Source: Patescibacteria group bacterium (GTDB lineage: Bacteria > Patescibacteriota > Microgenomatia > Levybacterales > UBA12049). Taken from it: a stretch of 64,000 nt of DNA. Shown here in pieces: positions 10,951 through 51,041 of the stretch. Within the stretch, counting starts at the first letter, position 1; every line of letters starts with the position of its first letter. Position numbers and translations under genes: made by a program. The notes below the pieces were generated by a model, which was not told the DNA's origin, searched no databases, and saw nothing but the letters and a program-made list of their open reading frames with translations. Location of the stretch: assembly GCA_038062115.1 (NCBI GenBank), contig JBBTXS010000008.1, positions 12,484 to 76,483 of the forward strand. Direction: 5' to 3'.

Positions 10951-11210
10951 CCAATTTTGTAACCGTTCAGGAGTTGACAAAACCTTCCTTGTCATTCCCA
11001 TGAAAATGGGAATCTATATAAATAACGTTCTGGATTCCCGCCTTCGCGGGAATGACATTGGAAACTCGTGGACGGTTACCCAATTTTGTAACCGTTCAGG
11101 ATTTGACAAAGGAATTGTCATTGCGAGCGTAGCGAAGCAATCTCATGAGATCGCCACGGCTACTTCGTAGCCTCGCGATGACAACGTTTTGTCAACTCCT
11201 GAACGGTTAC
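10951..11210. repeat. Composite of nested palindromic elements between divergent genes
   Basis: A ~30-nt unit CCAATTTTGTAACCGTTCAGGAKTTGACAAA occurs at 10951 and 11079 (direct) and as TTTGTCAACTCCTGAACGGTTAC at 11187 (inverted). The units bracket two hairpin elements: GTCATTCCCATGAAAATGGGAATC...GGATTCCCGCCTTCGCGGGAATGACA (10991..11057) and GTCATTGCGAGCG...CCTCGCGATGAC (11117..11182). Confidence 0.8.
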
Positions 11211-18302: not shown

Positions 18303-19313
18303 TCAATTTTTCTCCATATAGTTTTTGTGTAAAAGTCCTGCCTGTGCTCCAACTTGTTCGATTACGCTTGCGGCATTTAATGCTCCCCACCTCATTGCCT
18401 CTTTTATAGATAATTCATGCAAAATAGCAGACAAAAATCCAGTTGAGTAACTATCGCCAGCGCCTGTTTTTTCTATAACTTTTGTTTTGATAGCATCTTG
18501 AGTAAACATTTCTCCTTTCTCGTCTATGGCGTACGATCCATTTTCTCCATCGGTAATTACAGCAATCTTAGGCCCTAGTTTTTGCAACATCTCTAAAAGT
18601 CGTTTTATCTCCTCTTTGTTTTGCCCTTGATTCATAATTCTTAATTCATAATTCACAATTTGAGCTGCTTCCTCTTTGTTAACAAAAAGAATATCTGTTA
18701 TCGATAAAACATCTGCTATCGTTTTATATCCTGCCTCAATCTGTAGGGTTCCTGGATTAAATGCGAGAAAACATTTAGTCTTCTTTACAAAACTAAACAC
18801 TTTTTTGTACGGCTTTTTCCATTCATGCCCAAGAGACGTAAGATAGACGGATTTTGTAGAAATGTTGTCAAAGTTAAAGTTATGGAGCCTATCAACGTGT
18901 TCGGAAAAGATCGTTCGTTCTCCCTTAAAGTTTATAATAATAGAAAAAGATGCTTCCCCCCCCTTTGTTTGTATCAGAAACTGTGTGTTAACGTTTTCTT
19001 TTTTAAGAGCTTTTAAAATCTTTTGAGATAACTCGTCATCCCCAATTTCTGCATAAATTGCAGATTTTAATCCTAAGCGAGATAGACCAACTCCTACATT
19101 AGCAGCGTTTCCGCCAAGTAAAAAATTGCATCTGTCTACTTCGATTTTTTGTCCAGATCTAACACATAATTCATTTGTTTCTTTGTTCAGCCTAAAACAG
19201 TCATTTGCTTCGTGGACTGAAAGAAAGGCATCAATTTTAGCACTTCCAATCGTGATCGCATCAAAAATATGAGGCATGGACTCTATGCTACAAAAAATTA
19301 AGACATTTTTCAA
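18303..19313 (-). CDS. PfkB-family carbohydrate kinase (ribokinase-like)
   Basis: 336 aa. GGNAANVGVGLSRLG N-terminal motif and TGAGDSYSTGFLSA C-terminal PfkB signature. Confidence 0.8.
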   Translation of the reverse strand: MKNVLIFCSIESMPHIFDAITIGSAKIDAFLSVHEANDCFRLNKETNELCVRSGQKIEVDRCNFLLGGNAANVGVGLSRLGLKSAIYAEIGDDELSQKILKALKKENVNTQFLIQTKGGEASFSIIINFKGERTIFSEHVDRLHNFNFDNISTKSVYLTSLGHEWKKPYKKVFSFVKKTKCFLAFNPGTLQIEAGYKTIADVLSITDILFVNKEEAAQIVNYELRIMNQGQNKEEIKRLLEMLQKLGPKIAVITDGENGSYAIDEKGEMFTQDAIKTKVIEKTGAGDSYSTGFLSAILHELSIKEAMRWGALNAASVIEQVGAQAGLLHKNYMEKN

Positions 19314-19495: not shown

Positions 19496-20389
19496 ATGAT
19501 AGAAGAACTGCATGAGGCAAAGCTAAAAGAGCTTGAGCTTAAGGCAAATAAGATTAGACAACTGATTATTGAGGCTTTAGTTGAGGCTGGGTCTGGACAT
19601 TCTGCAGGACCTCTTGGGATGGCTGACATTTTTACCGCTTTTTATTTTCATATACTAAACCATAATCCAAAAAATCCAGACTGGGAAGACCGTGACCGAT
19701 TAGTTTTGTCAAATGGACATATTTGTCCTGTAAGATATGCTGCAATGGCCTTGAGCGGATACTTCCCGCTTGAAGAATTGAAAACTTTAAGAAAACTTAA
19801 CTCTCGTCTTCAAGGCCACCCGCACCGAACGGCACTTCCTGGCGTTGAAACAACCTCTGGCCCTTTGGGAGAAGGAATTTCCCAATCAATTGGCATGGCA
19901 CTTGCTGCAAAACTTGATAACAAAAAATATCATGTATATTGCATTGCGTCAGATGGAGAACAGCAAGAAGGTAATACTTGGGAAGCAGTAATGTTTGCTG
20001 CAAAATACAAAATTAATAACTTAACTCTTGTTATCGATAGAAATAACATCCAAATTGATGGTTTTACCGAAAACGTTATGCCCCTTGAGACGCTTCGGGC
20101 AAAATATGAAGCATTTAACTGGGAAGTTTTGGAAGTCGATGGAAGCAATATTCGTGACTTTGTTGATAAAGTAAGAGAGGCAAGAGCAATTTTTGAAAAG
20201 CCAACTGTTATTATTGCCCATACAGTTCCTGGTAAGGGTGTTGATTTTATGGAAAATAGATTTGAGTGGCATGGCATGCCACCCGATTCTCAAGACGTAA
20301 AAGGCGCGCCCCCAAAAGGAGAGCAAGCCAAAAAAGCGCTTGAAGAACTAAGAACTTTGCAGGGAAAAATAGTTTCGGAACACCAATGA
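19496..20389 (+). CDS. Transketolase, N-terminal subunit
   Basis: 297 aa. GSGHSAGPLGMADIFTAFYF, DRLVLSNGHICPVRYAAM, LQGHP, CIASDGEQQEGNTWEA (thiamine diphosphate-binding motifs). Confidence 0.9.
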   Translation: MIEELHEAKLKELELKANKIRQLIIEALVEAGSGHSAGPLGMADIFTAFYFHILNHNPKNPDWEDRDRLVLSNGHICPVRYAAMALSGYFPLEELKTLRKLNSRLQGHPHRTALPGVETTSGPLGEGISQSIGMALAAKLDNKKYHVYCIASDGEQQEGNTWEAVMFAAKYKINNLTLVIDRNNIQIDGFTENVMPLETLRAKYEAFNWEVLEVDGSNIRDFVDKVREARAIFEKPTVIIAHTVPGKGVDFMENRFEWHGMPPDSQDVKGAPPKGEQAKKALEELRTLQGKIVSEHQ

Positions 20390-20402: not shown

Positions 20403-20493
20403 GTCATTGCGAGGAGCGAGTGTAAACGAGCGACGTGGCAATCCCACTGTGAAAAAAGAGATTGCTTCTCAGGCTTCGCCTGATCGCAATGAC
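20403..20493. mobile_element. MITE-like palindromic element (GTCATTGCGAGG...GCAATGAC family) between the two transketolase subunit genes
   Basis: 91 bp with inverted ends GTCATTGCGAGG / GATCGCAATGAC. The inner GTGGCAATCCCA...GAGATTGCTTC matches, in opposite orientation, the copy inside tsaD (49488..49575) and the copy at 11117..11182. Confidence 0.75.
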
Positions 20494-20504
20494 ATATCAA
20501 ATTT

Positions 20505-21494
20505 ATGCTGAATCCCGTCTTAAAACTAAACCCAAAACTTTTCGATCCTGATGTTGAAGTAAAACCAACAAGGCACGGGTATGGGGATGGGTTGGTAGCT
20601 CTTGGTGAGCAAAATAAAGACACAGTGGTGCTCACTGCCGACCTTGCAGAATCTACTCAAGCCCATAAGTTTGCCGAAAAATTCCCTGATCGATTTTTTG
20701 AATGCGGGGTTGCTGAACAAAATATGGCGGCAATTGCTGCGGGGCTTGGAATAAGCGGCAAGATTCCTTTCATGTCTTCCTACGCCACCTTTTCTCCTGG
20801 CAAAAATTGGGAAACAATTAGAACGACCATTATCTACAATCAATCAAATGTCAAGATCGCTGGCCATCATGCTGGAATTGTTACGGGACCTGATGGTGCG
20901 ACTCATCAGGCAACAGAGGACATTGCCATTACACGCTCTTGGCCAGGGATTAAAGTTTTTGTCCCATGCGATTACTATGAAGCAAAAAAAGTAACTTTCG
21001 CAGTTGCTGATTTTGAAGGACCAGCATACCTTCGCTTTACAAGAGACAAAACTCCTATTATGACAACGCAAAGTTCGCCATTTGAAATAGGTAAGATCAG
21101 TGTATTTTGGACCAGTGATAATCCAAAGGCGGTCGTGTTTGGAACAGGCCACCTCCTCTACTATGCCATCCTTGCCGCACAAGAGTTGGAAAAAGAAGGA
21201 ATAAATGTGATTGTTGCCAATGTTGCTACAATTAAACCCCTTGATGAAGAGTCAATCATTGATCTTGCAGGAAAAACTGGCGCAGTAGTAACGGTTGAAG
21301 ATCATCAAATAGCTGGGGGGCTTGGAGGGGCAATTGCGGAACTGCTCGCAAGGGGAAAACCAACCGCTATGGAATTTATAGGCATGCAGGACACCTTTGG
21401 AGAATCTGGTAAACCAAGGGAGCTAATTGAAAAATATGGGATGGGGAAAGACTCAATCAAGCAAGCAGTGAAAAAGGTAATCGCAAGAAAATAA
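20505..21494 (+). CDS. Transketolase, C-terminal subunit
   Basis: 329 aa. PTRHGYGDGLVALG, FFECGVAEQNMAAIAAGLG, GATHQATEDIA motifs of the pyrimidine-binding and C-terminal domains. Confidence 0.9.
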   Translation: MLNPVLKLNPKLFDPDVEVKPTRHGYGDGLVALGEQNKDTVVLTADLAESTQAHKFAEKFPDRFFECGVAEQNMAAIAAGLGISGKIPFMSSYATFSPGKNWETIRTTIIYNQSNVKIAGHHAGIVTGPDGATHQATEDIAITRSWPGIKVFVPCDYYEAKKVTFAVADFEGPAYLRFTRDKTPIMTTQSSPFEIGKISVFWTSDNPKAVVFGTGHLLYYAILAAQELEKEGINVIVANVATIKPLDEESIIDLAGKTGAVVTVEDHQIAGGLGGAIAELLARGKPTAMEFIGMQDTFGESGKPRELIEKYGMGKDSIKQAVKKVIARK

Positions 21495-21497
21495 TAT

Positions 21498-21529
21498 CCA
21501 TTGTTATATTGTTAAATTGTTCCATTGTT
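21498..21529. repeat. Octamer tandem array (NNATTGTT x4)
   Basis: ccattgtt atattgtt aaattgtt ccattgtt. The same unit forms a 5-copy array inside tsaD at 49742..49781. A related NNGCAATN array lies at about 21575..21610. Confidence 0.8.
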
Positions 21530-21544
21530 AACCACCCCTTTTAT

Positions 21545-21570: not shown

Positions 21571-21617
21571 AGGGAAGGTAACAATGTAGCAATGAAGCAA
21601 TTTAGCAATTTTTCTTT

Positions 21618-26365: not shown

Positions 26366-26374
26366 AATTTCATT

Positions 26375-26483
26375 ATGACTGGGTCATTGTCATTTCGAGC
26401 TTGCCGAGAAATCTCCTTCAAAGAGATTCCTCGACTCGCTACACTCGCTCGGAATGACAAATGAGTATTTATGTCCTAGTCAT
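26375..26483. mobile_element. MITE-like element, family 1, full-length copy A
   Basis: 109 bp. Terminal inverted repeats ATGACTGGGTCAT / ATGTCCTAGTCAT (11 of 13 complementary). Inner inverted repeat TTGTCATTTCGAGC / GCTCGGAATGACAA. Flanked on both sides by AATTTCATT (26366..26374 and 26484..26492). Confidence 0.8.
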
Positions 26484-26623
26484 AATTTCATTATAGCAAA
26501 ATCACTACGTTCTATACTTGTCTAGTACCATCGCTACTTCGAAGGTGGCAAAGCATCGGAGCAAAGCCGTATAGTTCAAGACGATAAACATATTTCGTGA
26601 GAAAATATATGATACAATTAGTT

Positions 26624-26707
26624 ATGACTGGGTCATAATTGTCATTTCGAGCTTGCCGCTCGCTACACTCGCTCGGAATGACAAATGAGTATTTATGTCC
26701 TAGTCAT
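26624..26707. mobile_element. MITE-like element, family 1, copy B (internal deletion variant)
   Basis: 84 bp. Same ends as copy A but lacks the internal GAGAAATCTCC...GAGATTCCTC hairpin. It abuts the ftsK start region. Confidence 0.75.
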
Positions 26708-33707: not shown

Positions 33708-33756
33708 GTCATTCCCGCGAAACTTGTCCTCGAGAAATCGAGGAGCGGGAATCCAG
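33708..33756. repeat. Palindromic element (GTCATTCCCGCG...CGGGAATCCAG variant)
   Basis: Has the ends of the GTCATTCCCGCGAAAGCGGGAATCC hairpin family, with an inserted inner hairpin CCTCGAGAAATCGAGG. Lies between the methylase stop and the GIY-YIG gene. Confidence 0.7.
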
Positions 33757-33765
33757 AAAAATCAT

Positions 33766-34119
33766 ATGAAAAACTATTGTGTCTATATATTAGCAAGCAA
33801 AAGAAATGGAACGCTCTATATCGGTGTTACCAACAATTTAGAGAGAAGAATATATGAACATAAAAATAATATCATTAAAGGCTTTACTGCAAAATATAAC
33901 GTTCATCAGCTTGTTTATTTCGAGCAAACAGTAGATATTAATTCAGCTTTGCAAAGAGAAAAGCAGCTTAAGAAATGGAATCGGAAATGGAAACTTGCTT
34001 TAATCGAAAAAGAAAACCCCAATTGGGAGGATTTATCGGAGAGCTGGATGCCCGATCAGAGCTTGCCCCGTACGCGATACGGGGTCGGGCATGACAAAAA
34101 GGAAGCGGGGATTTATTAG
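33766..34119 (+). CDS. GIY-YIG nuclease family protein (small stand-alone type)
   Basis: YCVYILASKRNGTLYIGVTNNLERRIYEHK carries the GIY and YIG beta-strands, Arg and Glu. Start set at ATG 33766 (MKNYCVYIL) because the upstream part of the ORF-track model translates the palindromic repeat. The last ~20 codons also run into a palindromic element. Confidence 0.8.
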   Translation: MKNYCVYILASKRNGTLYIGVTNNLERRIYEHKNNIIKGFTAKYNVHQLVYFEQTVDINSALQREKQLKKWNRKWKLALIEKENPNWEDLSESWMPDQSLPRTRYGVGHDKKEAGIY

Positions 34120-34130
34120 TAGCTCTTGGT

Positions 34131-34321
34131 GTCATTCCCGCGAAAGCGGGAATCCAGAGAAAGATTACGACTGGATTCCCAATCAAGTTGGGAATGACAA
34201 AGTGATAGAAGGATAAATTAAACGATTTAGTTTTTGGAGGTAGCGAGGCTGTCATTCCCGCGAAAGCGGGAATCCAGAGAAAGAAGACAACTGGATTCCC
34301 AATCAAGTTGGGAATGACAAA
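34131..34321. repeat. Two tandem copies (120-bp period) of a double-hairpin palindromic element
   Basis: GTCATTCCCGCGAAAGCGGGAATCCAGAGAAAGA..AC..CTGGATTCCCAATCAAGTTGGGAATGACAAA occurs at 34131..34201 and 34251..34321. Each copy is followed by a copy of the 18-nt methylase 3' end. Confidence 0.85.
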
Positions 34322-36293: not shown

Positions 36294-36759
36294 TTTTGAG
36301 AAGTTTTATAATATTGCGCTTCGGTTTTTGGCATATCGTCCTCGGTCGGAAAAAGAAGTAAGAGACTATCTGACGCGAAAAAAAAATGAGTCTTCAATTA
36401 TTGAGAGAGTTATTGTCAAACTAAGAGAACAAAAGTTTGTTGACGATGAGGAGTTTGTGAAATGGTGGATCGAACAGCGATCTGCGTTCAAAACTAAAAG
36501 TATTAAGTTCATAAAAATGGAGCTACAACAAAAAGGCGTAGCTCAAGAAATAGCAGATCGCATAATTCATAATTCAGAATTCATAATTCAGAATGATTTG
36601 GAACGAGCGAAGAAGTTAATAGAAAAACGGCTAGAAAGGGTTAAGGGTTTATCTAAGCAGGAAATTTATCAAAAACTAGGCTCGTATCTTGCGCGAAGAG
36701 GGTTTGATTGGGAGACGATAAAACAATCCATTGACGAGGTGATTTTAAAAGGAGTATAA
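36286..36759 (+). CDS. recX: RecA regulator RecX
   Basis: 157 aa. FLAYRPRSEKEVRDYLTRKK plus three-helix repeats. Overlaps the S-subunit gene by 8 nt. Contains a heptamer array at 36562..36596. Confidence 0.75.
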   Translation: MGDFEKFYNIALRFLAYRPRSEKEVRDYLTRKKNESSIIERVIVKLREQKFVDDEEFVKWWIEQRSAFKTKSIKFIKMELQQKGVAQEIADRIIHNSEFIIQNDLERAKKLIEKRLERVKGLSKQEIYQKLGSYLARRGFDWETIKQSIDEVILKGV

Positions 36760-41098: not shown

Positions 41099-41107
41099 AA
41101 TAAAAAT

Positions 41108-41422
41108 CCTAGGAAGAGAATAAGCCAGATTCTGTTTTAGTTGCAATCTATCTATGCCCTCAAGCATCGGTACTAGGGTAAAGAACCTTAAAACGTACCA
41201 GTCGGAGGTTGCAGCGGGTAGGATTGCCCGTTTCACTCCCACTCGTCTCTGTTGCTCTCAAGTCTTGTCAATTCAAGACCTGTTCCAAACTCCACATGTG
41301 GGTAAAGAGTTTGGATACCAGCGCTTTCGCGTCGGAGCTTGCGCTCCATCCCCGTCTTTACGCCTGTCTGGACTTTCCTCTACGTTCATGTAACTGAACG
41401 CAGCAGCAACCTTCTTCCTAGG
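41108..41422 (-). ncRNA. rnpB: RNase P RNA, bacterial type A, compact (~315 nt)
   Basis: Minus strand contains GAGGAAAGTCCAGACAGG (P4 5' strand, consensus GAGGAAAGUCCGGGC) and ACAGAATCTGGCTTAT (P4 3' strand, consensus ACAGAACCCGGCUUA). The ends CCTAGGAAGA / TCTTCCTAGG pair as P1. Confidence 0.85.
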
Positions 41423-41501
41423 TACGCATATTTTATCAAAAAGTAACTCAAAAAGCGATCGGGCATTTGTAGACTAGAGAACATTAGGGTATAATATTTT
41501 T

Positions 41502-41921
41502 ATGTTAACAAGCAGTGAGAAAGCACAAATTATTGAATTTGTAAAAAGTAAGCCTATTGAGGTGGTGTATATTTTTGGCTCTCAGGCAACAGGTAAAGTA
41601 ATGCCTTTATCTGATTACGATTTTGCAGTGCTTTTTGATGAGTCAATATCAGCTCATGAAAGATTTGAGCTAAAACTAGATTTTATTGCCTTCCTTTCAA
41701 AACTGCTTAAAACAGACAAAGTTGACGTTGTAGATCTTAACAGCGCTCCGCTTCCGTTTCGCTACTCAGCGATCAAGCCCCGCATGGATATTTATACAAG
41801 ATCCAAAACAAAAAGAGATGAATTTGAATTAAAAACCTTTCGAGAATTTCTTGATAGGGTATATTATATAAAGCGCCATACGCAAGAGAGTTTAAGATTA
41901 TTTGCTAAGCATGGATTGTAA
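41502..41921 (+). CDS. mntA: MntA-type nucleotidyltransferase (antitoxin of a HepT/MntA pair)
   Basis: 139 aa. NTase motif IFGSQATGKVMPLSDYDFAVLF (GSx10-ish DxD). Confidence 0.75.
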   Translation: MLTSSEKAQIIEFVKSKPIEVVYIFGSQATGKVMPLSDYDFAVLFDESISAHERFELKLDFIAFLSKLLKTDKVDVVDLNSAPLPFRYSAIKPRMDIYTRSKTKRDEFELKTFREFLDRVYYIKRHTQESLRLFAKHGL

Positions 41922-41933
41922 GAGTCTTAATCT

Positions 41934-42353
41934 ATGGATCATATTGATAAAATCAACTTACGAATTGAAAAGCTTAAAGAATACGTTAATAGCCTAAAAA
42001 AACTAAAAGGTGTAACCGCAAAGGACCTTGTGGAAGATGAAGATAAGCGCCTCAAAGCAGAAAGACTTCTGCAACTTGCAATTGAGGCATGTGTTGATAT
42101 TGCAGAATTGATTATTGTGGACCAAAGACTTCGTGCTCCAATTGACGCTGCGCAAGCCATAGAAATTCTGGGGGAAGAGAAGATCATAGATTCTTCTTTT
42201 GCAAAAGGTTTTGCAAAAGCGGTTGGTTTTAGAAACATATTAGTCCATGACTATATTGATATTAATTACGAAGAAGTGGCAGATAAGATCAACAAAAGAC
42301 TTGGTGATTTCGACAGATTTGCTCAAGAAGTGGCGAAATTTTTGACTCTCTAA
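41934..42353 (+). CDS. hepT: HepT-type HEPN (DUF86) toxin
   Basis: 139 aa. Rx4HxY motif in FRNILVHDYIDI. Starts 12 nt after mntA. Confidence 0.75.
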   Translation: MDHIDKINLRIEKLKEYVNSLKKLKGVTAKDLVEDEDKRLKAERLLQLAIEACVDIAELIIVDQRLRAPIDAAQAIEILGEEKIIDSSFAKGFAKAVGFRNILVHDYIDINYEEVADKINKRLGDFDRFAQEVAKFLTL

Positions 42354-42414
42354 AACAGAATTGATTTACTCTCTTCATAGGGCACTTTTGAAAGTAAAAA
42401 AGATTCCTAATTAT

Positions 42415-45282
42415 TTAATTTGTATTGCACAACATTTTATATTCGCAGTTTTGGCAGATGATTGAATGACTGCAAGCAAAATCGCTTTTTTCGATTTCTC
42501 CGATTTTTTCAATAAGCTGTGACTCTAATTTGTCTAAATCTTCCTGTTGAAAGTTCATAGATTTTTTAGTATTTCCTTCCAGGAAATGAAGTGTTAAAGT
42601 AATGTCTTTAGGATTTCGATTTAGAACTTCATCTTTTACCCGCGTTGCGGCAAGCGCATACATGGCAAGCTGAAGCCTGTGGGTTTTGTCTGCTTTGGGA
42701 TTATCTATACCGGTTTTATAATCTATAATTTCAATGCCATTGCCTTTTTTGTCTACGCGGTCAATCTTTCCAAAAACCTTTACGTTATTTTTTAAAACAA
42801 AAGAAAATGGGAGCTCCAGCGCTAATGGTTTTATACGGGTTTTGAATTCTGTTTTATAAAATTCTTCGAGTATTTTAATTGCCTGGGAAAAGCGTTCTTC
42901 TTCATGTTTTTTGCCATCGTATCCGTCGCTAAGCCATTCTTTCTTAAGAATTTCAATTAATTGTGTAAGGGGTAGAGCTTCCCTTTCCATGAGTCGTTTA
43001 TAAAAATTATACAAAGTATTATGGACAGAAATACCAAAACTTTGAACAGCGGCAGCAGGAGTTGGAATATTAAAAATCACTTTTGCTTTGTAATGCAGTG
43101 GGCAAATATCAAACATCTGAAGGTTTGAAAAGGTAATATAACTTAACTTAAGCGGCCGTTTCTCTTCTTTTCTCTCCTCGGTTTTCTCATAAACAGAAAG
43201 AACTTCCGTAAGAGACAGCTGCTCGATACGATTTTTTGCTTCGTCTTGTTCTTTGAGCTTGGGAAGAGTTTCATAAACAAAAGGGGAAAGTGGTCTTGGC
43301 CGTTTTGCTGTTCCATAATAGGACGCAGATGTTAAATATAATCTTTCTTTTGCTCGAGTCATCCCGACATAAAAAAGTCTTCGTTCTTCTTCCAGGTGAA
43401 AATCAGTATCGAGAGGTATATTTTCTTTCATAATCCCAACAGGCAATGGAATCTTTTCACTTCTTTCGCGCGAGGGAAAACGATCAGACACAAGATTTAC
43501 CAAGAATACAACTTTAAACTCGAGTCCTTTGGAAGAGTGCACTGTTAGAATATTAACGACATTTCTATCTCTTACGTCAATATCGGCAGCTCTGGGGCTT
43601 TCTCCCATTTTAAGCATAAGATTTAACCATTCAGAAAGCGTAAATATATTTGCATCAGCACGTTCTGTCTCAAAGTTTTTAATCCTGTCAAAAAACTTAG
43701 CAATATTTTGGACACGCCGTTCTTCCCTAACGGAATTAGTAGAGTTAAGTGTTTCAAAAAGCTTTGAGTCGATCAAAAAGTAATAAAGAATTTGTCCTCC
43801 GGAGTCTTTTTTGCTCCTTTCCAGATGACGTTTGGCCATTTCCCTAAAAGTTATAAGTTTTTCCCGTGTTTCAGGTTTCAAAAATGACTGGTCAACATTG
43901 ACAAGCGCTTCAAAAAGAGTAAGGTTTCTCTTCTTTGCAAAATTTAGAAGATAGTTTAATTCAATATAAGGAATATTAAATATGTCCATAGAAAGTAGCC
44001 TAAAAAGAGAAACAGAATCTGAAAGATTTGTTAAAAATGTCAGGTAGGCAATTAAATCTTTTATTTCCTCCTGCTGGAAAAGGTAGCCGGGCCCTAAAAA
44101 TTGAAAAGGAATCCTATGTCTTTGTAACGCATTTGTAATAAGTTGAGAATGATTATTTGCACGGACCAAAATTGCGATATCTTTATATTCGTACTTTTGT
44201 TCTAAAAGTTTTTCTATGGTGATAGCTATTTTATCTGCTTCGTCTTCTGACCGATTCTCATGGATTAACTCAATTTCTTTTTTGGGAGAGATAGAATGGC
44301 TTTTAAGTTTTTTATCAATGCTTTCAACTATCTCAAGTCTATTAGGATTGTTATGTTGGATTAGCTGGTAAGCTGCATCTAGAATAGGCTGAGTAGATCT
44401 GTAGTTATCATTCAAAGTCACAATTTCCGTATCTGGGAAATTTTTCTTAAATTGTAAAACATTTGAAACCGCAGCGCCTCTAAATCTGTAGATTGATTGG
44501 TCGTCATCGGCAACTACGGTAATATTTTTATCATCCCCTGCAAGTGCAATCGCCAGTTCGTTTTGGGCGTAGTTTGTATCCTGGAATTCATCAACTAAGA
44601 CAAACTTGAACTGATTTTGATATTTTTTTAAAATATTTCTTCTTTTTCGAAATAGCAATAAAGTATTCGAGATAAGGTCTGAAAAATCCATAACTGATTC
44701 TTTGACTTTCAATTCTTCATATTTCTTATAAGAATTTGCGAGTTCTAGATACTGCTGTGTTTCTTCTTCTGACTCATTATTTTTGACCCATTTGATATAC
44801 TCAGTTGGTGATATGTCTTCATCTTTAAGTCTTGAGAAGTGAGTTAAAAGAGCATCTAGAAATTTCGTAGGATTACCAAGAGGTCTAAAATTTTTTAACT
44901 CTAAATTAAAAATATTTTTCTGAAGCAGAAGTACAGACTCTGATTCTGAGATTAACTTGTAACTTGGGTCTAGTCCTATGGCATGAGCTTCGTTTCTTAA
45001 GATCCTATCGCAAAAGGCGTGAAAAGTTGATATCCACATTTGGGTATATCCGTATGGCATTGCTATATCAACACGCTCTTCCATTTCTGCTGCCGCTTTT
45101 TCTGTAAAGGTAAGGGCGAGGATTTGGGAAGGATTAACTTCTTTTTTGAGGATCAAATATTTAATGCGTTCTGTAATAACTGTTGTTTTACCAGTTCCAG
45201 CGCCTGCTATGATAAGAAGTGGACCGCCATTATACTTAATAGCCTCCATCTGCTCTCTGTTGAGAGTTTTTATGTTTGTCAT
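42415..45282 (-). CDS. UvrD/PcrA-type helicase fused to a C-terminal PD-(D/E)XK, Cas4/AddB-like Cys-cluster nuclease
   Basis: 955 aa. Walker A AGAGTGKTT, VDEFQDTN (motif II), TVHSSKGLEF, YVGMTRAK. C-terminal DICPLHYK, GKIDRVD, IEIIDYKTG and CSHSIICQNCEYKMLC. Confidence 0.8.
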   Translation of the reverse strand: MTNIKTLNREQMEAIKYNGGPLLIIAGAGTGKTTVITERIKYLILKKEVNPSQILALTFTEKAAAEMEERVDIAMPYGYTQMWISTFHAFCDRILRNEAHAIGLDPSYKLISESESVLLLQKNIFNLELKNFRPLGNPTKFLDALLTHFSRLKDEDISPTEYIKWVKNNESEEETQQYLELANSYKKYEELKVKESVMDFSDLISNTLLLFRKRRNILKKYQNQFKFVLVDEFQDTNYAQNELAIALAGDDKNITVVADDDQSIYRFRGAAVSNVLQFKKNFPDTEIVTLNDNYRSTQPILDAAYQLIQHNNPNRLEIVESIDKKLKSHSISPKKEIELIHENRSEDEADKIAITIEKLLEQKYEYKDIAILVRANNHSQLITNALQRHRIPFQFLGPGYLFQQEEIKDLIAYLTFLTNLSDSVSLFRLLSMDIFNIPYIELNYLLNFAKKRNLTLFEALVNVDQSFLKPETREKLITFREMAKRHLERSKKDSGGQILYYFLIDSKLFETLNSTNSVREERRVQNIAKFFDRIKNFETERADANIFTLSEWLNLMLKMGESPRAADIDVRDRNVVNILTVHSSKGLEFKVVFLVNLVSDRFPSRERSEKIPLPVGIMKENIPLDTDFHLEEERRLFYVGMTRAKERLYLTSASYYGTAKRPRPLSPFVYETLPKLKEQDEAKNRIEQLSLTEVLSVYEKTEERKEEKRPLKLSYITFSNLQMFDICPLHYKAKVIFNIPTPAAAVQSFGISVHNTLYNFYKRLMEREALPLTQLIEILKKEWLSDGYDGKKHEEERFSQAIKILEEFYKTEFKTRIKPLALELPFSFVLKNNVKVFGKIDRVDKKGNGIEIIDYKTGIDNPKADKTHRLQLAMYALAATRVKDEVLNRNPKDITLTLHFLEGNTKKSMNFQQEDLDKLESQLIEKIGEIEKSDFACSHSIICQNCEYKMLCNTN

Positions 45283-45307
45283 GAAGGTATTCTAACATAA
45301 CAAGTAT

Positions 45308-45742
45308 TTACTCAACCACTACTGTTCCTGTTCGAGTCGGATTTAAGTGATCGTGATATTTATATGTTCCTTGTTCGTCAAAAACAAGAGACACAGACTC
45401 ACTGTCAGAAACACGATTAAGGTTAAGCGGTGGATAGATTAAGTGTGTCGGGTGCAAAGCAGAATTAACTGTTGCAGCGCTACCGCTTTTGTTTGCCCAC
45501 ACTACTTTTGTTCCAGCTTCAATATTGACTGTTTCAGGTTCAAATCCAGAACTTGTTATTGTAATAACTGCTGCTTGAGTTTGTTCTTCAGCTTGAGTTG
45601 CTGTCTCTGTAGCTGGTGGATTTTGTTCTATTGCTTGAGGGGCTATTTCAGGCCCGCCTTTTTTGTTAGAAACCAATATAAATCCTACAACTACAATTAC
45701 AGCTATTGCTCCAAACAGAATTTTGTTGTTCATTTTTTTCAC
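45308..45742 (-). CDS. Secreted cupredoxin-like protein (HPTH / YHDHL motifs)
   Basis: 144 aa. N-terminal TM/signal. ITITSSGFEPETVNIEAGTKVVWANKSGSAATVNSALHPTHLIYP...YKYHDHLNPTRTGTVVV. Same motif pair as the N-terminal domain of the ORF at 5259..7778. Confidence 0.65.
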   Translation of the reverse strand: MKKMNNKILFGAIAVIVVVGFILVSNKKGGPEIAPQAIEQNPPATETATQAEEQTQAAVITITSSGFEPETVNIEAGTKVVWANKSGSAATVNSALHPTHLIYPPLNLNRVSDSESVSLVFDEQGTYKYHDHLNPTRTGTVVVE

Positions 45743-45826
45743 CTCCTCTCGTTAGCGTTTAGTTAATTAGCGTCTAGCGTCTAGTTTTAGTATATTGTTT
45801 TTTTAGAAATGGAGCAATAGTTGTTT

Positions 45827-46630
45827 TTATCTTAGTTTAAAGAAAACTAAGTTTCCTAATAGAAGGGAGAAAACAAGGGGATCAATTGAGTTGAAAGTTG
45901 AGAATTGAGAATTGAGAATGGGCGAAGATACAATAAGAGAAATTAGGGCAACAAAAATTCCAAAAATAATTTGCTTGGTATGATTATTCGGTGAAGTCAA
46001 TGGTTCTGGAAGCATGACAATTGAGAAAAATAGGACTGTTGGATCGAGAATAGTATTTAGTATTAAGTATTTAGTACTAAGTAGGATAAGAAAGGAGTAG
46101 GTAAGTAAGAAGGATACTGTAATTCGATATCGCCCCATACGGTAAGAAGAAATGAGAGACGGCGAGAGAAGAATCAGAAAATAAATTATGAATTCTATCC
46201 CGCCTTTGGCGGGACTAAATTGTTGCCAAGAAACTGCCCACCAAGAAATAGCGTGTCTAAAGATTATTGCGCCAACAAGCAATCCAAACCCTGCGGGGTT
46301 AAAGATGTGACGATTTGAAAATCTTATGAAATTTTTTGAGAACATCGCAATAACACCAACTACAACCGGGATATACCAAGTAAAATCAGGGGCTGTTAAA
46401 AGCCCAACAATGCTTCCAGTGACAAGGGCTGCACTTGGAAAAAACCACTTAATATTTCGAAGTCTTACAAATAAAAGATCTGCGCTTACTGCTGATATTA
46501 TAGATAATAGAAAAACAAGAAGAATTTTTTGTGAAGGGTTATTTAGAAATGCAGTTATAAAAATGAGCGTTAGAAAAAACCCCATTTGGGTTTTTGAAGT
46601 TTTAAATAAATTAATAAAATATTGCATCAT
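45827..46630 (-). CDS. Polytopic membrane protein, possibly NqrB/RnfD-like
   Basis: 267 aa with about eight helices. The HIFNPAGFGLLVGAIIF segment recalls the NqrB/RnfD family, but this is a weak assignment. Contains heptamer arrays at about 45885..45919 and 46051..46085. Confidence 0.4.
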   Translation of the reverse strand: MMQYFINLFKTSKTQMGFFLTLIFITAFLNNPSQKILLVFLLSIISAVSADLLFVRLRNIKWFFPSAALVTGSIVGLLTAPDFTWYIPVVVGVIAMFSKNFIRFSNRHIFNPAGFGLLVGAIIFRHAISWWAVSWQQFSPAKGGIEFIIYFLILLSPSLISSYRMGRYRITVSFLLTYSFLILLSTKYLILNTILDPTVLFFSIVMLPEPLTSPNNHTKQIIFGIFVALISLIVSSPILNSQFSTFNSIDPLVFSLLLGNLVFFKLR

Positions 46631-46647
46631 GATATAATCATAGCACT

Positions 46648-46759
46648 ATGACTGGGTCACAATTGTCATTTCGAGCTTGCCGAGAAATCTCCTTCAACGA
46701 GATTCCTCGACTCGCTACGCTCGCTCGGAATGACAAATGGGTATTTATGACCCAGCCAT
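46648..46759. mobile_element. MITE-like element, family 1, copy C, with perfect flanking direct repeat
   Basis: 112 bp, same ends and inner hairpins as copy A. Flanked by AATCATAGCACT at 46636..46647 and 46760..46771. Identity extends to 17 nt (46634..46650 and 46758..46774) where the flanks overlap the element ends. Confidence 0.85.
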
Positions 46760-46771
46760 AATCATAGCACT

Positions 46772-47536
46772 ATGGGAATCTTAGCGAAAGAGTTTTACTT
46801 ACCGTTTATCAAAAAAGAGAAGCTCGTAAAAGACACGTATTCATTTTATTTCGACCGCGTCAGACGCGGTTTAAGTTTTTTACCCGGACAATACATGCGC
46901 ATGATTCTTGATATCAAAAATCCAGATGAACGTGGGAACTCGCGTTTTTTTACAATCGCATCTTCTCCTTTAGAAAAGGATTATATTATGATAACTACCA
47001 AAATTACACAAAGCCCCGTACCAGACGGTACAGGGGAAAGCTCTTTCAAAAAAAGACTGATAGAATTAAAGGCTCAAGAAAAAGTGCAATTTTTTGGACC
47101 AATGGGAGAATTTGTGTTGAATGAGGAAAAAAAAGAAGATCGTGTATTTCTGGCAGGAGGGATTGGAATAACGCCATTTCATAGCATGCTAACCTATGCT
47201 TATCAAAAAAATCTTTCCATCCCTATAGCTCTTATTGTCTCATTTTCAACAGCACAGGATATTTTTTGGCACAAAGAACTGCAAGAGATAGCAACAAATA
47301 ATCCCAGTATTAAAGTTATCTACACAGTAAGTCGTCCGGAAAAGTCGAACACAAAGTGGAATGGCGAAACAGGAAGGATTTCGGATGTGCTGATTAAAAG
47401 TCATGTGCCAGATTTTTTAAGACCCCTATATTATATTGTTGGTCCTCCAGCAATGGTTGCCGGAATTGAGGATGTTGTAAAAAAAATAGGCGTGTCATCC
47501 GAAAAAATCTTTATAGAGAACTTTACTGGATACTAA
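46772..47536 (+). CDS. Ferredoxin-NADP reductase-like FAD/NAD(P)-binding oxidoreductase
   Basis: 254 aa. PGQYMRMIL, RFFTIASSP (RxYS-type FAD motif), LAGGIGITPFHSML (NAD(P) motif), YIVGPPAMV. Confidence 0.75.
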   Translation: MGILAKEFYLPFIKKEKLVKDTYSFYFDRVRRGLSFLPGQYMRMILDIKNPDERGNSRFFTIASSPLEKDYIMITTKITQSPVPDGTGESSFKKRLIELKAQEKVQFFGPMGEFVLNEEKKEDRVFLAGGIGITPFHSMLTYAYQKNLSIPIALIVSFSTAQDIFWHKELQEIATNNPSIKVIYTVSRPEKSNTKWNGETGRISDVLIKSHVPDFLRPLYYIVGPPAMVAGIEDVVKKIGVSSEKIFIENFTGY

Positions 47537-47545
47537 ATAAAATTT

Positions 47546-48691
47546 TCAGTTTTCAATTTCTAATTTTTCTGTGTCTGACAGAACGGAGCTTTCAGAAATT
47601 AAATCTGATTTGGATTCTTCAAGTCTTATTTTATCTACAGTCCTTACTAATTGTTTTGTTCTAGTCGAGTTAACTTTATCGTATTGTTCAGATAATGCGT
47701 CAATCCTTATGCCAATTTTTTCAAATTCTTCATTATATTTCCTGAATTCATCTTCAAATACTTTTATAAATGTAATTATTTTATGAATATTTTTTTGATA
47801 TTTAAAGTTACTGTATGATTGTCGAATTAATCTTAAAACAGCAGTAAAATTAAAAGGCCCAGCCAAAATTACTTTCTGTTTCATTGCATCGGACCAAACG
47901 CGATTCATCCGATCATAGATAAAAGAGAAAATCATCTCGTTTGGAATAAACATAATGACAAAATCAACAGTATTATTCGCTGGATTGATATAATCTCTGG
48001 TTGTTACTTGCTTAATTTTTTCCTTTATGTCTACCTCGAATGCCTTTACGTGTTCTTGTTTAGAAGACTTGTCTTCGGTTTCTGTCATTTTTTGAAGGTT
48101 AGAATAGGGGAATTTTGCATCAACATTAATTTTTATGCCATCTGGCAGTAGTATAGTAAAATCGGGTCTAGTGGAAGAATCTTCCTGCCTCTTGTTTTTT
48201 AAATAGTCGACTCCGTTTACAAATCCAGACATCCTTAATAAATCTTCGGCAACTTGTTCGCCAAATTGACCCCTTAATTGATTATTTGATAGGACTTTTT
48301 TTAACCCTTCAGTAGTTGCAGATAGCTGTTCTGTTATTACTTTATGTCCCTCTAGCTCTTGTTGAAGCGCTCGAAACGAACCTACCCGTTCTTTATCTGA
48401 GTCCTCAACCTTCTTATTGTTTTGTTTAATCTCATCTTTAAGTTGTTTTATTAAATCTTCAATTGCAGTTTTTTTGTTCGATAAATCCGTTTTTATGTCT
48501 TGGTTTTCTGCTTTTAGTTTTTCATTAGCAATCTTAATTAATTGATCTACGGCTTTACTAAGAGAACTTGGAACAATCTCATTTAGTTTTTGTTCTATTT
48601 TTGAGCTTGTATCGGTGGAGAAAAACTTGCTTTTAACAACAACAGCAATGATTATGCCCATAAGTATTCCTAGGATTAAATAAATTTCCAT
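47546..48691 (-). CDS. rmuC: DNA recombination protein RmuC
   Basis: 381 aa. N-terminal TM and coiled coil. RGQFGEQVAEDLL, RPDFTILLPDG, DAKFPY, DFVIMFIPNE. Confidence 0.8.
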   Translation of the reverse strand: MEIYLILGILMGIIIAVVVKSKFFSTDTSSKIEQKLNEIVPSSLSKAVDQLIKIANEKLKAENQDIKTDLSNKKTAIEDLIKQLKDEIKQNNKKVEDSDKERVGSFRALQQELEGHKVITEQLSATTEGLKKVLSNNQLRGQFGEQVAEDLLRMSGFVNGVDYLKNKRQEDSSTRPDFTILLPDGIKINVDAKFPYSNLQKMTETEDKSSKQEHVKAFEVDIKEKIKQVTTRDYINPANNTVDFVIMFIPNEMIFSFIYDRMNRVWSDAMKQKVILAGPFNFTAVLRLIRQSYSNFKYQKNIHKIITFIKVFEDEFRKYNEEFEKIGIRIDALSEQYDKVNSTRTKQLVRTVDKIRLEESKSDLISESSVLSDTEKLEIEN

Positions 48692-48734
48692 AAAGTTGGT
48701 AAATTATACATCAATTTTAAGCAAAGTAGAAGAA

Positions 48735-50024
48735 TTAATCAAAGTACAACTCTGGATCTGCCGTAATTTTGCTCCAATGGAATGGTTTGTGATTAAAAAA
48801 AGCTGCGGAGGCGATCATCGCCCCATTGTCCGTACAGAGATTTTTCGACGGTACGGACAATGAGATTTCTAATTTCAAATTTCTAATTTCTAATGCAAAT
48901 TGATCACGAAGTTTTTGATTGGCTGAGACGCCACCTCCTAGGAGAATTGATTTGACGTTGTATTTTTGGGCTGCTTTTAGGGTTTTAGCAATTAATACGT
49001 CAACAATTGCTTGTTGGACAGAGGCGCTGAGATCTGACAACAATTGTTCTTTTTCATTGGTCATTCTGGCAATCCCGACTTGTCGGGAACGTCCAGAATC
49101 TCCTACGTCAGTACGTTGAGAGATTCTGGAGTCGTCCTCCACGCTTCCGCTCTGAGTCGTCCCCAGAATGACGGAGACTTTAGGATCTTTTTTGATCAAA
49201 TATAAAACAGATGTTTTTAAACCGCTGAAACTAAAGTCCAAATCGTCGGAGTCAATCATCGGTCGTGGAAATTGGAATGCTTTTGGGCTGCCGTTTTTAG
49301 CGGCTTTTTCAATTGATGGGCCACCTGGATAAGGTAATCCTAAAAGTCTTCCTATTTTGTCAAATGCTTCGCCAGCAGCATCATCACGCGTGCCACCAAG
49401 CCACTTAATTTTTCCATGATCTTTCATCAGGACCAAGTCAGTATGGCCTCCCGAAACAATTAGAGCAAGAATAGGGAAGGTTATTTTGTCATTGCGAGGA
49501 TCCCGACTTGTCGGGAGACGAAGCAATCTCTTATCCGATGGGATTGCCACGCTCCTTTCAGTCGCTCGCAATGACACAGAAGCGAAAGGCTTTTCTTCAA
49601 TGAAATTTGCATAGATGTGTCCGATAAGGTGATTGACTGGGATTATTGGCTTCTGCCAAATATAAGATAGAGTTCTTGCAGTTTCAACTCCTACCAAAAG
49701 AGAACCGATAAGACCGGGACCTACGGTGACAGCGATAACATCTATTGTTTCATTGCTCAATTGTTTCATTGTTCCATTGTTAGTTCTCGACTCGCTACGC
49801 TCGCTCGAAGAATAAACAGCAAGGGCTTTTTTAATTACTGGAATTATATATTTTACCTGTTCGCGGGCGGCAACTTCTGGAATAATTCCGCCTGTCTTTG
49901 AGTGAAGACGTAAAGAAGATGCAACCACATTAGAAATAAGTTTGACTTTTCTATCACCTTGATTTGCCTCAATAATAGAGGCAGAAGTTTCGTCGCAGCT
50001 AGTTTCTATCCCTAAAATTCTCAT
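48735..50024 (-). CDS. tsaD: tRNA N6-adenosine threonylcarbamoyltransferase TsaD, with repeat-derived in-frame insertions
   Basis: MRILGIETSCDETSASI, VTVGPGLIGSLLVG, LALIVSGGHTDL, LCTDNGAMIA. 429 aa, against 337 aa for E. coli TsaD. The extra segments coincide with repeat copies at 49742..49810, 49488..49575, 49060..49172 and 48865..48899. Confidence 0.9.
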   Translation of the reverse strand: MRILGIETSCDETSASIIEANQGDRKVKLISNVVASSLRLHSKTGGIIPEVAAREQVKYIIPVIKKALAVYSSSERSESRTNNGTMKQLSNETIDVIAVTVGPGLIGSLLVGVETARTLSYIWQKPIIPVNHLIGHIYANFIEEKPFASVSLRATERSVAIPSDKRLLRLPTSRDPRNDKITFPILALIVSGGHTDLVLMKDHGKIKWLGGTRDDAAGEAFDKIGRLLGLPYPGGPSIEKAAKNGSPKAFQFPRPMIDSDDLDFSFSGLKTSVLYLIKKDPKVSVILGTTQSGSVEDDSRISQRTDVGDSGRSRQVGIARMTNEKEQLLSDLSASVQQAIVDVLIAKTLKAAQKYNVKSILLGGGVSANQKLRDQFALEIRNLKLEISLSVPSKNLCTDNGAMIASAAFFNHKPFHWSKITADPELYFD

Positions 50025-50470
50025 ACATTATCTAGTCTCATTACATCGCCTTCTTTAAAGTTATATTTTTCCGAAAGACCAGCGTTTATTTCCAAGACTA
50101 TGTCTGCCGGCTCGGAAGATCTATAAATAGGTGGGTTTTCGTTAGAGTTTGTCGGAGGTTTTACATTTTTATGAATCGTTACGATCCGACCATTCCTAAT
50201 AAAAATAATATCTATGGGAAATTTCATATCTTTAATCCAAAAACTATAAAAATCTGGTTTATCAAATAAAAAAATCATGCCAAAATTTTGAGGAATATTA
50301 TTATATTTAGAAAGTCCTATTTCTCGATCTTTTGGAGTTTTTGCAACGTACAGATTAAACGTATACTTATTTATGGTTACAGTTGGTCTTTTATCTTCTA
50401 GAATATTTCCTATGAAAACTAGCAAAAGAAAAATAAAAATTATTCTAATTACCCAATAAATTTTTTTCAC
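50021..50470 (-). CDS. DUF192 family protein
   Basis: 149 aa. N-terminal TM. GLSKYNNIPQNFGMIFLF ... FWIKDMKFPIDIIFI ... VLEINAG pattern. 4-nt overlaps with both neighbouring genes. Confidence 0.6.
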   Translation of the reverse strand: MKKIYWVIRIIFIFLLLVFIGNILEDKRPTVTINKYTFNLYVAKTPKDREIGLSKYNNIPQNFGMIFLFDKPDFYSFWIKDMKFPIDIIFIRNGRIVTIHKNVKPPTNSNENPPIYRSSEPADIVLEINAGLSEKYNFKEGDVMRLDNV

Positions 50471-50955
50471 AATGCTTCTACTTTAGTCAAACCTGCAATT
50501 CTACTTGTTGATTGATCAGAAACTCTTTTGCTAACGTATGCTACTTCTCCATTAATTAATTTTGCTTGGCGCTTTTTGTGGCCAACATTTGGGTCGTTAG
50601 CTGTTGTTGCAATAATTGATGGATGAATTTTTGTTATAATTCCGTCGTACTCACTATCTGTTTTTGAGTTTGTGAGCATAACCACGAAATCTACATAAGA
50701 TATGGCAGAGAGGACTATCGCTCTATCTTGTTGATTATTAATTGGTCTGTTATCTCCCTTAATTCTTTTTACTTTCTCGTCACTTTCTAAAAGAACAAAT
50801 AATACGTCGCCACGTTGTTTTGCTTTATTGAGAAATATTACATGACCAGCATGGATTATATCAAAACAGCCACCAGCCAGAACAATAGTTTTTCCATGAC
50901 TTCTAAGTTTTTTGGCAATCTGAACTGATTTTTGTATAGAAATCACCTTATTCAT
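50467..50955 (-). CDS. Cytidylyltransferase-like nucleotidyltransferase (RfaE domain II / TagD-like)
   Basis: 162 aa. GGCFDIIHAGHVIFL (HxGH motif) and C-terminal STSRI. Confidence 0.7.
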   Translation of the reverse strand: MNKVISIQKSVQIAKKLRSHGKTIVLAGGCFDIIHAGHVIFLNKAKQRGDVLFVLLESDEKVKRIKGDNRPINNQQDRAIVLSAISYVDFVVMLTNSKTDSEYDGIITKIHPSIIATTANDPNVGHKKRQAKLINGEVAYVSKRVSDQSTSRIAGLTKVEAL

Positions 50956-51007
50956 AATTTAGAATCTAGAATTCAGAATTAAGAATTAAATTCAGAATGT
51001 AGAATTA
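50953..51007. repeat. Heptamer tandem array (NAGAATT, about 8 units), intergenic
   Basis: cataatt tagaatc tagaatt cagaatt aagaatt aaattc agaatgt agaatta. Confidence 0.85.
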
Positions 51008-51041
51008 GTTCTTACTATAATTTTAAACTCTAAATTTTTAC

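Follow-up and report, generated by a model that had tools for sequence, protein, structure and literature searches.

How does an essential gene stay open when small repeats are inserted into it? The question is raised by the tRNA-modification gene tsaD of a Patescibacteria group bacterium, an ultra-small inhabitant of groundwater; the gene lies in a 64-kb stretch of contig JBBTXS010000008.1 (assembly GCA_038062115.1) that was analysed as a whole and is called the window below. A preliminary description of this DNA had noted that the TsaD open reading frame (ORF) is too long, and had attributed the excess to three to four in-frame insertions of dispersed repeats, kept as peptide loops in the manner of the Rickettsia palindromic elements (RPEs). 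The excess is real, since the ORF encodes 429 amino acids (aa), compared with 327-343 aa in the solved bacterial TsaDs. The likeness to RPEs was also supported, by intergenic copies, an empty-site ortholog and an intact fold. Our interpretation, with a probability of roughly 0.78, is that three loops of TsaD have been colonised by small palindromic elements without ORFs, derived from units that carry a GIY-YIG nuclease gene. The anatomy of the inserts, their family relations, the empty site, the insertion hot spots, the link with GIY-YIG and the covariation of the end hairpins were all directly observed.

48735-50024, minus strand: tsaD ORF, intact, ATG start, 429 aa, the sole copy within the window

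The ORF, which belongs to the TsaD/Kae1/Qri7 family of t6A transferases, matched the Pfam family TsaD (PF00814, E = 8.5e-81), and a search against PDB sequences returned the solved bacterial TsaDs at E values of about 1e-70. Its alignment with the TsaD of T. maritima left three gaps, at query aa 70-87, 144-179 and 282-322. We set the boundaries of the inserts by codon alignment with a syntenic ortholog from the same aquifer (P0020, 338 aa), which lacks all three inserts and thus represents the empty site. Compared with P0020, the window protein has 91 extra residues in three blocks, aa 71-94, 151-179 and 285-322, here called sites A, B and C (24, 29 and 38 aa). A fourth position, site D, is occupied by a heptamer array.

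49785-49814: site A, part 1, half element (left arm of a family-1 MITE, a miniature inverted-repeat transposable element) with a degenerate end, aa 71-80, YSSSERSESR
49744-49781: site A, part 2, octamer array (AACAATNN, gene strand), 4.8 copies, read as NNGTMKQLSNETI
49488-49575: site B, complete 88-nt element of the GCGAG subfamily, aa 151-179, SLRATERS...DPRND
49060-49172: site C, complete palindromic element of 113 nt, aa 285-322, VILGTT...GIARMT
48865-48894: site D, heptamer array (AGAAATT, gene strand), 4.3 copies with 91% matches, aa 378-388, LEIRNLKLEIS

Sites B and C each hold an exact GTCATT...AATGAC element, and the translations quoted for them in the preliminary description were correct. 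The site C element starts with GTCATTCTGG and ends with CCAGAATGAC, and is laid out as GTC-[ATTCTGG...CCAGAAT]-CTC...GAG-[ATTCTGG...CCAGAAT]-GAC. That of site B follows the layout GTCATTGCGAGG...GAAGCAATC...GATTGC...CTCGCAATGAC, with GTCATTGCGAGG at its start and CTCGCAATGAC at its end. A 17-nt hairpin is identical in the two, and both folded far better than shuffled sequences (z = -5.8 for site C and -5.7 for site B). At site A, positions 49786-49807 matched the intergenic segment 46706-46727 exactly over 22 nt (E = 2e-7), which bears out the suggested combination of an octamer array with the core of a family-1 element. The half element is common to the window and the relative P0002, and the octamer array resembles another at 21500-21531. 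Site D was the fourth of the proposed insertions. Its 7-nt array is genuine, yet the encoded peptide can be aligned with ordinary residues of TsaD and lengthens the protein by only 0-2 aa. Three insertions stand, and the fourth does not.

To judge from sequence and model, the inserts leave the core of the protein unaffected. The HxxxH metal-binding motif and the C-terminal Asp motif are intact (H132, H136 and D399), as are the SGGHT and GPGL blocks that are invariant in the alignment, and all the residues invariant across 26 TsaDs are kept, so the conserved blocks reported earlier were recovered in both alignment and translation. The AlphaFold model had a mean pLDDT (predicted local distance difference test) of 71.5, and the top Foldseek matches of its core were YgjD/TsaD crystal structures (target-normalised template modelling score 0.85). 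Three stretches alone fell below 50 (aa 84-86, 146-174 and 289-321), each situated between elements of secondary structure; in the model these low-confidence stretches are the three inserts, which lie in loops and are predicted to be disordered. Site A comes after helix alpha1 and site C lies within a helical region. By translation, tryptic peptides from within or spanning the inserts would include ISQRTDVGDSGR, SVAIPSDKR and TNNGTMK.

At the nucleotide level, the tsaD elements share families with non-coding copies elsewhere in the window. The common plan is GTC, an ATT...AAT hairpin, a central stem-loop (often AATCCAG...CTGGATT), a second ATT...AAT hairpin and GAC. We found ten GTCATT...AATGAC pairs of 42-113 nt in the window, where dinucleotide-preserving shuffles gave about 0.7. 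All seven elements that were folded were more stable than shuffled sequence (z = -3.6 to -6.2). They are richer in G+C (55%) than the window (37%). Each of the ten window elements has six reading frames, and of these 60 frames 27 are open. Being small (42-113 nt), multicopy, with inverted ends and no ORF, they have the properties by which MITEs are defined. The preliminary description had spoken of several unrelated repeat types; this has to be revised, as site B, site C and the half element at site A belong to one superfamily, recognised by its GTC/GAC termini and ATT...AAT hairpins. Elements elsewhere in the window include the following.

10991-11056: intergenic element of the CCCGC/CCCAT subfamily
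11117-11182: intergenic element of the GCGAG subfamily, right end GCGATGAC
20403-20493: intergenic element of the GCGAG subfamily, in the gap between the transketolase halves
26389-26458: intergenic family-1 element of the TCGAGC subfamily, enclosed by a larger inverted repeat
26641-26682: short version of the family-1 element, 42 nt
46665-46734: intergenic family-1 element, containing the 22 nt that match tsaD site A

The GCGAG subfamily, to which site B belongs, was found in at least 120 genome stretches. The hosts were Alpha- and Gammaproteobacteria, Bacteroidota, Chloroflexota, Planctomycetota, Cyanobacteria, Nitrospirota and Patescibacteria. It was also present on at least 120 predicted viral contigs of IMG/VR, several of which had two or three copies, and viral contigs are a possible route of spread between phyla. 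A copy closely resembling the site B element occurs in another Patescibacteria metagenome-assembled genome from well H51. A Patescibacteria genome from that well, L064, gave no blastn match to the window and is therefore not its source. No element matched an Rfam family, either in a scan of the whole window at gathering thresholds or in an E-value scan of tsaD.

Some of the intergenic copies have surroundings worth recording. Transketolase is encoded by two ORFs, the N-terminal half at 19496-20389 and the C-terminal half at 20505-21494, and the GCGAG element lies exactly between them. Two family-1 copies form composites (46634-46774 and 26366-26494), in which the element sits within a larger inverted repeat, GACTGGGTCA...TGACCCAGC. 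The first composite is flanked by 17-nt direct repeats (at 46634 and 46758), the second of which includes the start codon of the next gene, and the other by 11-nt direct repeats (at 26366 and 26484).

Are insertions at these three sites peculiar to the window? We collected 120 homologous TsaDs with 53-64% identity to the window protein and aligned them with it (n = 121). The homologs ranged from 335 to 415 aa. Eight or more extra residues were found at site A in 41 of the 121 proteins, at site B in 23 and at site C in 24, and no alignment position outside these sites was as variable in length. Close relatives carry different extra peptides, which are recognisable as translated repeats: the peptide signatures of element ends (GTCATT/AATGAC read in frame, such as RHSG...ARMT, SLRA...PRND and VIL...QDD) were present in 22 segments of 15 proteins. 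At the DNA level, the tsaD of P0001 has elements at all three sites. Its site A has the ATTCTGG type seen at site C of the window, and its site C has a short element. At its site B is a GCGAG-type element with the position, frame and 3' flank of the window copy and different inner hairpins. An element with the same position and frame at site B was found in about seven further homologs, and the SLRA...PRND peptide occurs in a shared frame in about nine proteins. The three tsaD loops are insertion hot spots throughout the lineage.

Within genes, the elements proved restricted to tsaD when related DNA was scanned. In about 295 kb (the window, L004-L007 and L128-L207), the genuine elements within long ORFs were all in tsaD, and the genes neighbouring tsaD are constant in length among relatives. 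GTCATT...ATGAC pairs in other long ORFs (at 11868 and 22487 of the window and at 1498 of L155) were rejected as chance occurrences without a palindrome.

Such recurrence might instead mean that selection on the protein maintains the extra segments as functional loops specific to the lineage, and that their likeness to repeats is secondary. The expansion of the same three loops in many relatives and the repetition of SLRA...PRND in one frame in about nine proteins would agree with this, as would the location of sites A and C near surfaces that bind partners in other bacteria (PMC6009658). However, the peptides are wholly different between close relatives, whereas the DNA palindrome and its ends are conserved. 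Identical element types occur in non-coding DNA, the ortholog P0020 does without any insert, and the segments are modelled as disordered. We consider protein-level selection an unlikely origin of the segments. Later exaptation of an inserted loop is possible.

The interpretation of the elements as mobile DNA gains its partner gene from another part of the window, where a longer unit with the same kind of ends is followed by two ORF-less copies with the identical end type.

33708-34095, plus strand: full-length hairpin-ended unit, 388 nt, left end GTCATTCCCGC..GCGGGAATCCAG, right end CTGGATGCCCGA..TCGGGCATGAC
33766-34119, plus strand: GIY-YIG nuclease ORF, 117 aa, in the central loop of the unit (PF01541, E = 3.5e-18)
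34131-34198: ORF-less 68-nt copy of the CCCGC subfamily, with ends as in the GIY-YIG unit
34251-34318: second ORF-less 68-nt copy, 94% identical to the copy at 34131-34198

The left end hairpin lies directly upstream of the start codon of the nuclease gene, and the 3' end of the ORF passes through the right hairpin. The GIY-YIG domain spans residues 1 to about 95 of the 117 aa and is the only domain; searches of Pfam and NCBIfam found no transposase domain in it. The one NCBIfam match was below threshold (TIGR01453, group I intron endonuclease, 23.6 bits against a cut-off of 56).

We surveyed 80 metagenome loci that encode relatives of this protein with 62-95% identity, and scored a left end when GTCATT was present within 130 nt upstream and a right end when [AC]ATGAC was present at the 3' end. 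By these criteria a left end was present at 71 loci and a right end at 67, and 66 loci had the two together. The units were 314-564 nt long, most commonly 354 nt. Their 127 outer flanks fell into 82 sequence clusters, which indicates that the unit occupies many different contexts. In the right-end hairpin, 96.5% of the cells were paired, and 14 cells had changed on both sides, compared with 3.4 in shuffles; this number was reached in none of 500 shuffles. One of the compensatory changes turned ATT/AAT into ATG/CAT. These changes imply that the hairpin itself is the conserved object.

The protein family is large, with 15,760 clusters at 50% identity. Where its members are extended at the N or C terminus, the extensions read as translated end hairpins of many types, for example SFPRKRESS, VIPAKAGNQ, CHPELVEGS, VIASTRSNP, WIPAFAGMT, DSRFRGND and SLRYAQND. 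One family member, L209, is a complete unit whose ends are of the GCGAG type (GTCATTGCGAGTACTCGAAGCAATCCAG, the ORF and CTGGATTGCTTCGAGTACTCGCAATGAC), and it ties the subfamily of tsaD site B to the nuclease. In addition, the hairpin CCCGACTTGTCGGG of tsaD sites B and C differs by no more than a 1-nt gap from the right-end hairpin common among the nuclease units. A search of viral contigs returned no close relative of the window protein.

Several features of the GIY-YIG units were noted besides. In L135, L137, L140, L142, L150 and L159, and probably in L139, a Bro-N/DinD-like gene contains a full unit at the same conserved position, immediately after ...KVGYERIEEIEDPE(L/K)A, and the unit breaks its reading frame. 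The recurrence at these seven loci may reflect homing to a specific site or else an insertion inherited from long ago. A smaller hairpin (CTTGTCCTCGA...TCGAGGA / ...CGGGGA) lies in the loop of the left-end hairpin, at 33723-33744 in the window and also in the units of L129, L130, L137, L147, L148 and L164, so that repeats are nested in repeats. A 16-nt motif, TTTAGTTTTTGGAGGT, precedes the GIY-YIG unit (33676), the second ORF-less copy (34226) and the next gene (34335), and is also present upstream of the units in L128, L130, L132 and L134. This motif may be a duplicated gene end or a ribosome-binding region.

The nuclease raises a second alternative, because group I introns classically carry GIY-YIG genes. 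The elements might be spliced from the mRNA, with the pairing of their ends joining the junctions, so that the inserts would be absent from the protein. The ends can indeed pair, all the elements tested fold strongly, the units in the Bro-N/DinD-like gene break the frame at one conserved position in seven loci, and the weak TIGR01453 match points in the same direction. Splicing would nevertheless require neither that every tsaD insert be in frame nor that it be free of stops, and all of them are both. This favours translation and disfavours removal at the RNA level. Precise excision of the GTCATT...AATGAC elements, of 113 and 88 nt, would shift the frame. Moreover, the covariation backs two terminal hairpins rather than end-to-end pairing, as the change from ATT/AAT to ATG/CAT took place inside one hairpin. 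A scan of the entire window with Rfam gathering thresholds, the GIY-YIG unit included, gave no match to an intron, and no intron or other family was returned for the elements. Splicing seems distinctly unlikely.

It might also be asked whether the window tsaD is a decaying paralog, with a working copy elsewhere in the genome. Only 64 kb of the genome are in view, and tsaD lies within a stretch of about 10 kb whose divergence from a close relative is far greater than that of the flanks. Yet the ORF is intact with every invariant residue, including H132, H136 and D399, and no second TsaD-like ORF was found in the 64-kb window. The gene order VanW / CTP-transferase-like / DUF192 / TsaD / RmuC is kept in five relatives, and relatives with two or three tsaD inserts are equally intact. 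The window gene is a true, intact ortholog, and the idea of a pseudogene is very improbable. As to an assembly artefact, dispersed repeats are a known cause of misassembly in metagenomes, but the possibility can practically be dismissed, given that the identical TsaD protein is encoded on separately assembled contigs from three groundwater samples of the Hainich wells H51 and H41 that are 100% identical to the window across the tsaD region (up to 7.3 kb), that the frame is preserved through three inserts, and that relatives from other sites have like inserts.

The divergent stretch itself was seen when positions 41100-51030 of the window were compared with the close relative L004. The flanks have 92-95% DNA identity (EF-G, 96.7% protein identity), whereas the 10 kb or so between them, tsaD included, has merely 67-78%. 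RmuC is only 29% identical (381 aa in the window and 332 in L004). The stretch has the appearance of a divergent island or of a mosaic made by recombination. At 42415-45282 (minus strand), the window encodes a UvrD/PD-(D/E)XK helicase of 955 aa; the version in L004 (14237-18271) has 1344 aa, with Hint/intein domains.

We return to colonisation by elements derived from GIY-YIG units, and to how it might work. The short elements behave as non-autonomous, MITE-like derivatives of the nuclease-carrying units of about 0.35 kb, as is shown by the ends they have in common with the units and by the many genomic contexts. The nuclease would move them, presumably by recognising the terminal hairpins. 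Persistence in an essential gene would need a number of added bases divisible by three, no stop in the host frame and a tolerant loop. With a G+C content of 55% and 27 of 60 frames open, an insertion divisible by three stands a reasonable chance of preserving an open gene, and in an essential gene selection would keep the insertions in tolerant loops alone. Most likely, the inserts are translated as disordered loops of 24, 29 and 38 aa, with the TsaD core and active site unchanged.

Several observations weigh against this interpretation or fit it poorly. A consistent target-site duplication was not seen: most copies are flanked by T...A, as at site B, and site C is flanked by C...C (gene strand), although the T...A flanks may belong to the element ends. 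No GIY-YIG gene was present within 8 kb of 120 short elements of the GCGAG type (E <= 10), so that the evidence for the partner consists of the common ends, a single full unit with ends of the GCGAG type and the CCCGC subfamily. Such an absence fits copies that are non-autonomous, and proximity lends the link no support. The nuclease activity of the GIY-YIG protein is predicted from sequence and its substrates are presumed, and a PDB sequence search with the protein found no solved relative. Translation through the inserts is likewise deduced from the reading frame. In other bacteria, the regions of TsaD near sites A and C contact TsaB and TsaE (PMC6009658). By analogy, the tolerance of inserts there is not self-evident, and effects on partner binding are possible. 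Colonisation does not account for the preference for tsaD over the neighbouring genes. Finally, the set of homologs favours intact ORFs, and genes split by out-of-frame elements would escape retrieval.

A bolder proposal is that the elements represent an undescribed class of bacterial mobile DNA, spread across phyla and also borne by viral contigs. Its autonomous form would be the unit of about 0.35 kb, encoding nothing but a minimal Slx1-like GIY-YIG nuclease that recognises and cuts the terminal hairpins or cruciform of the element, and in one lineage of the candidate phyla radiation the ORF-less copies would prefer the three tsaD loops, perhaps guided by the arrays. We put it forward tentatively, and on balance think it is probably not correct in full.

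The arrays mentioned in this proposal were called with Tandem Repeats Finder; a stricter periodicity scan gave only three arrays of period 7. In tsaD orthologs, site D holds arrays of other units at the same place with unchanged length: (GGAAATT) in 4.5 perfect copies in P0020, (GAAAATT) in P0002 and (CTAAACG) in P0012, whose site B has a near-identical 36-nt (CTAAACG) array. The octamer array (MKQLNNETI) is found at site C in most relatives, for example P0020 and P0012, and at site A in the window and P0002. Hairpin elements are often located within or beside arrays. In L208, which is from another genome, the arrays of sites C and D are interrupted by small hairpins rich in G+C. One idea is that arrays might serve as landing pads for the hairpin elements.

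Similar arrays were observed elsewhere in the window. An RnfD-like gene has in-frame heptamer arrays at 45898-45919 and 46051-46083; the orthologous loops of three relatives have arrays of different units and equal length, as if homogenised in place. Further in-frame period-7 arrays within genes were found in RecX (36561-36594), in a PfkB kinase gene (18630-18660) and at the 3' end of RmuC (47541-47567). Two intergenic octamer arrays, 21500-21531 and 21578-21609, are inverted relative to each other, have the unit type of tsaD and flank the hairpin CCCCTCCTTAGAAAGGAGGGG. Degenerate tandem repeats make up much of two very large ORFs, 7819-10650 (minus strand) and 11270-16192 (plus strand), with units of 15-33 nt in one and Thr/Pro-rich units of 6-24 nt in the other. 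The latter also contains two 78-nt dockerin-like repeats at 16039-16183. The products of both ORFs are probably surface proteins.

The in-frame survival of selfish palindromes in essential genes is known mainly from Rickettsia, and is here found in the candidate phyla radiation (CPR)/Patescibacteria, whose tiny genomes are thought to be under strong streamlining. Three recurrent loops in one universal enzyme amount to a natural experiment on the tolerance of a fold and on the targeting of insertions. A widespread, unnamed palindromic repeat is now tied to a minimal GIY-YIG nuclease gene flanked by covarying hairpins. Spurious 'hypothetical proteins' (for example ...SLRAKRSN... and ...DSRFRGND...) commonly stem from this repeat, and automatic gene calling will yield TsaDs that are too long as well as numerous false small ORFs. 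Should the nuclease prove to mobilise the repeats, the system would be a novel type of bacterial mobile element whose mechanism can be tested, and if the class is truly a new one, TsaD would be a fast-evolving mosaic of translated mobile DNA. In the literature searched, we found no link of GIY-YIG genes to such hairpins or to ORF-less derivatives and no report of in-frame repeats in CPR, an absence that is not proof of novelty, and nothing relevant on UPF0213/YhbQ/COG2827 or on heptanucleotide arrays of Patescibacteria. The nuclease partner and the concentration in tsaD appear to be undescribed.

Among known systems, the closest in behaviour are the RPEs, of which 44 insertions in dozens of unrelated genes were described in R. 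conorii (Ogata et al. 2000, summarised in PMC10969869). Both are short dispersed palindromes, found between genes and in frame within housekeeping genes, where they add peptides compatible with the fold. They differ in that RPEs are spread over many genes, whereas the intragenic copies here are all in tsaD, in three recurrent loops. The host phylum is another one, and the likeness proposed is one of behaviour. To our knowledge, RPEs have no partner gene. None is mentioned in PMC10969869, whereas the present elements have a full-length form that carries a GIY-YIG gene.

With the bacterial MITEs (Correia elements/CREE, ERIC, RUP and Nezha; PMC10969869, PMC3184786), the present elements share small size, multiple copies, inverted ends and the lack of coding capacity, as well as ends in common with a longer gene-carrying unit and occasional in-frame fusions. 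Here, however, the partner is a minimal GIY-YIG nuclease and not a DDE or other known transposase, regular target-site duplications are not seen, and the termini are covarying hairpins rather than simple inverted repeats. Repetitive extragenic palindromes (REPs), together with their paired form (REPINs) and their REP-associated tyrosine transposases (RAYTs), are similar in that hairpin repeats flank a small gene of nuclease type and in that structure is conserved more than sequence (PMC3733652). The RAYT is an HUH/Y1 enzyme and its repeats have GTAG or CGTC tags, whereas here the enzyme is GIY-YIG and the ends are GTC...GAC (GTCATT/AATGAC). REPs are also extragenic by definition, unlike the copies in tsaD, and the present superfamily crosses many phyla and occurs on viral contigs.

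The nuclease itself fits the minimal stand-alone bacterial GIY-YIG group called Slx1-like, with its core of roughly 95 aa and no extra domain; flanking repeats are not mentioned for that group (PMC1564403). It shares the catalytic domain with the GIY-YIG homing endonucleases, which are mobile as well. The classic homing enzymes, in contrast, have DNA-binding modules and reside in introns or phages, whereas the window protein has neither such a module nor an intron match. The arrays, for their part, recall the STRR (short tandemly repeated repetitive) sequences of cyanobacteria, which are short tandem arrays of 7-nt units dispersed through the genome. Those described here differ in being placed in frame within genes, at orthologous loops, with units that vary between relatives and are often split by hairpins.

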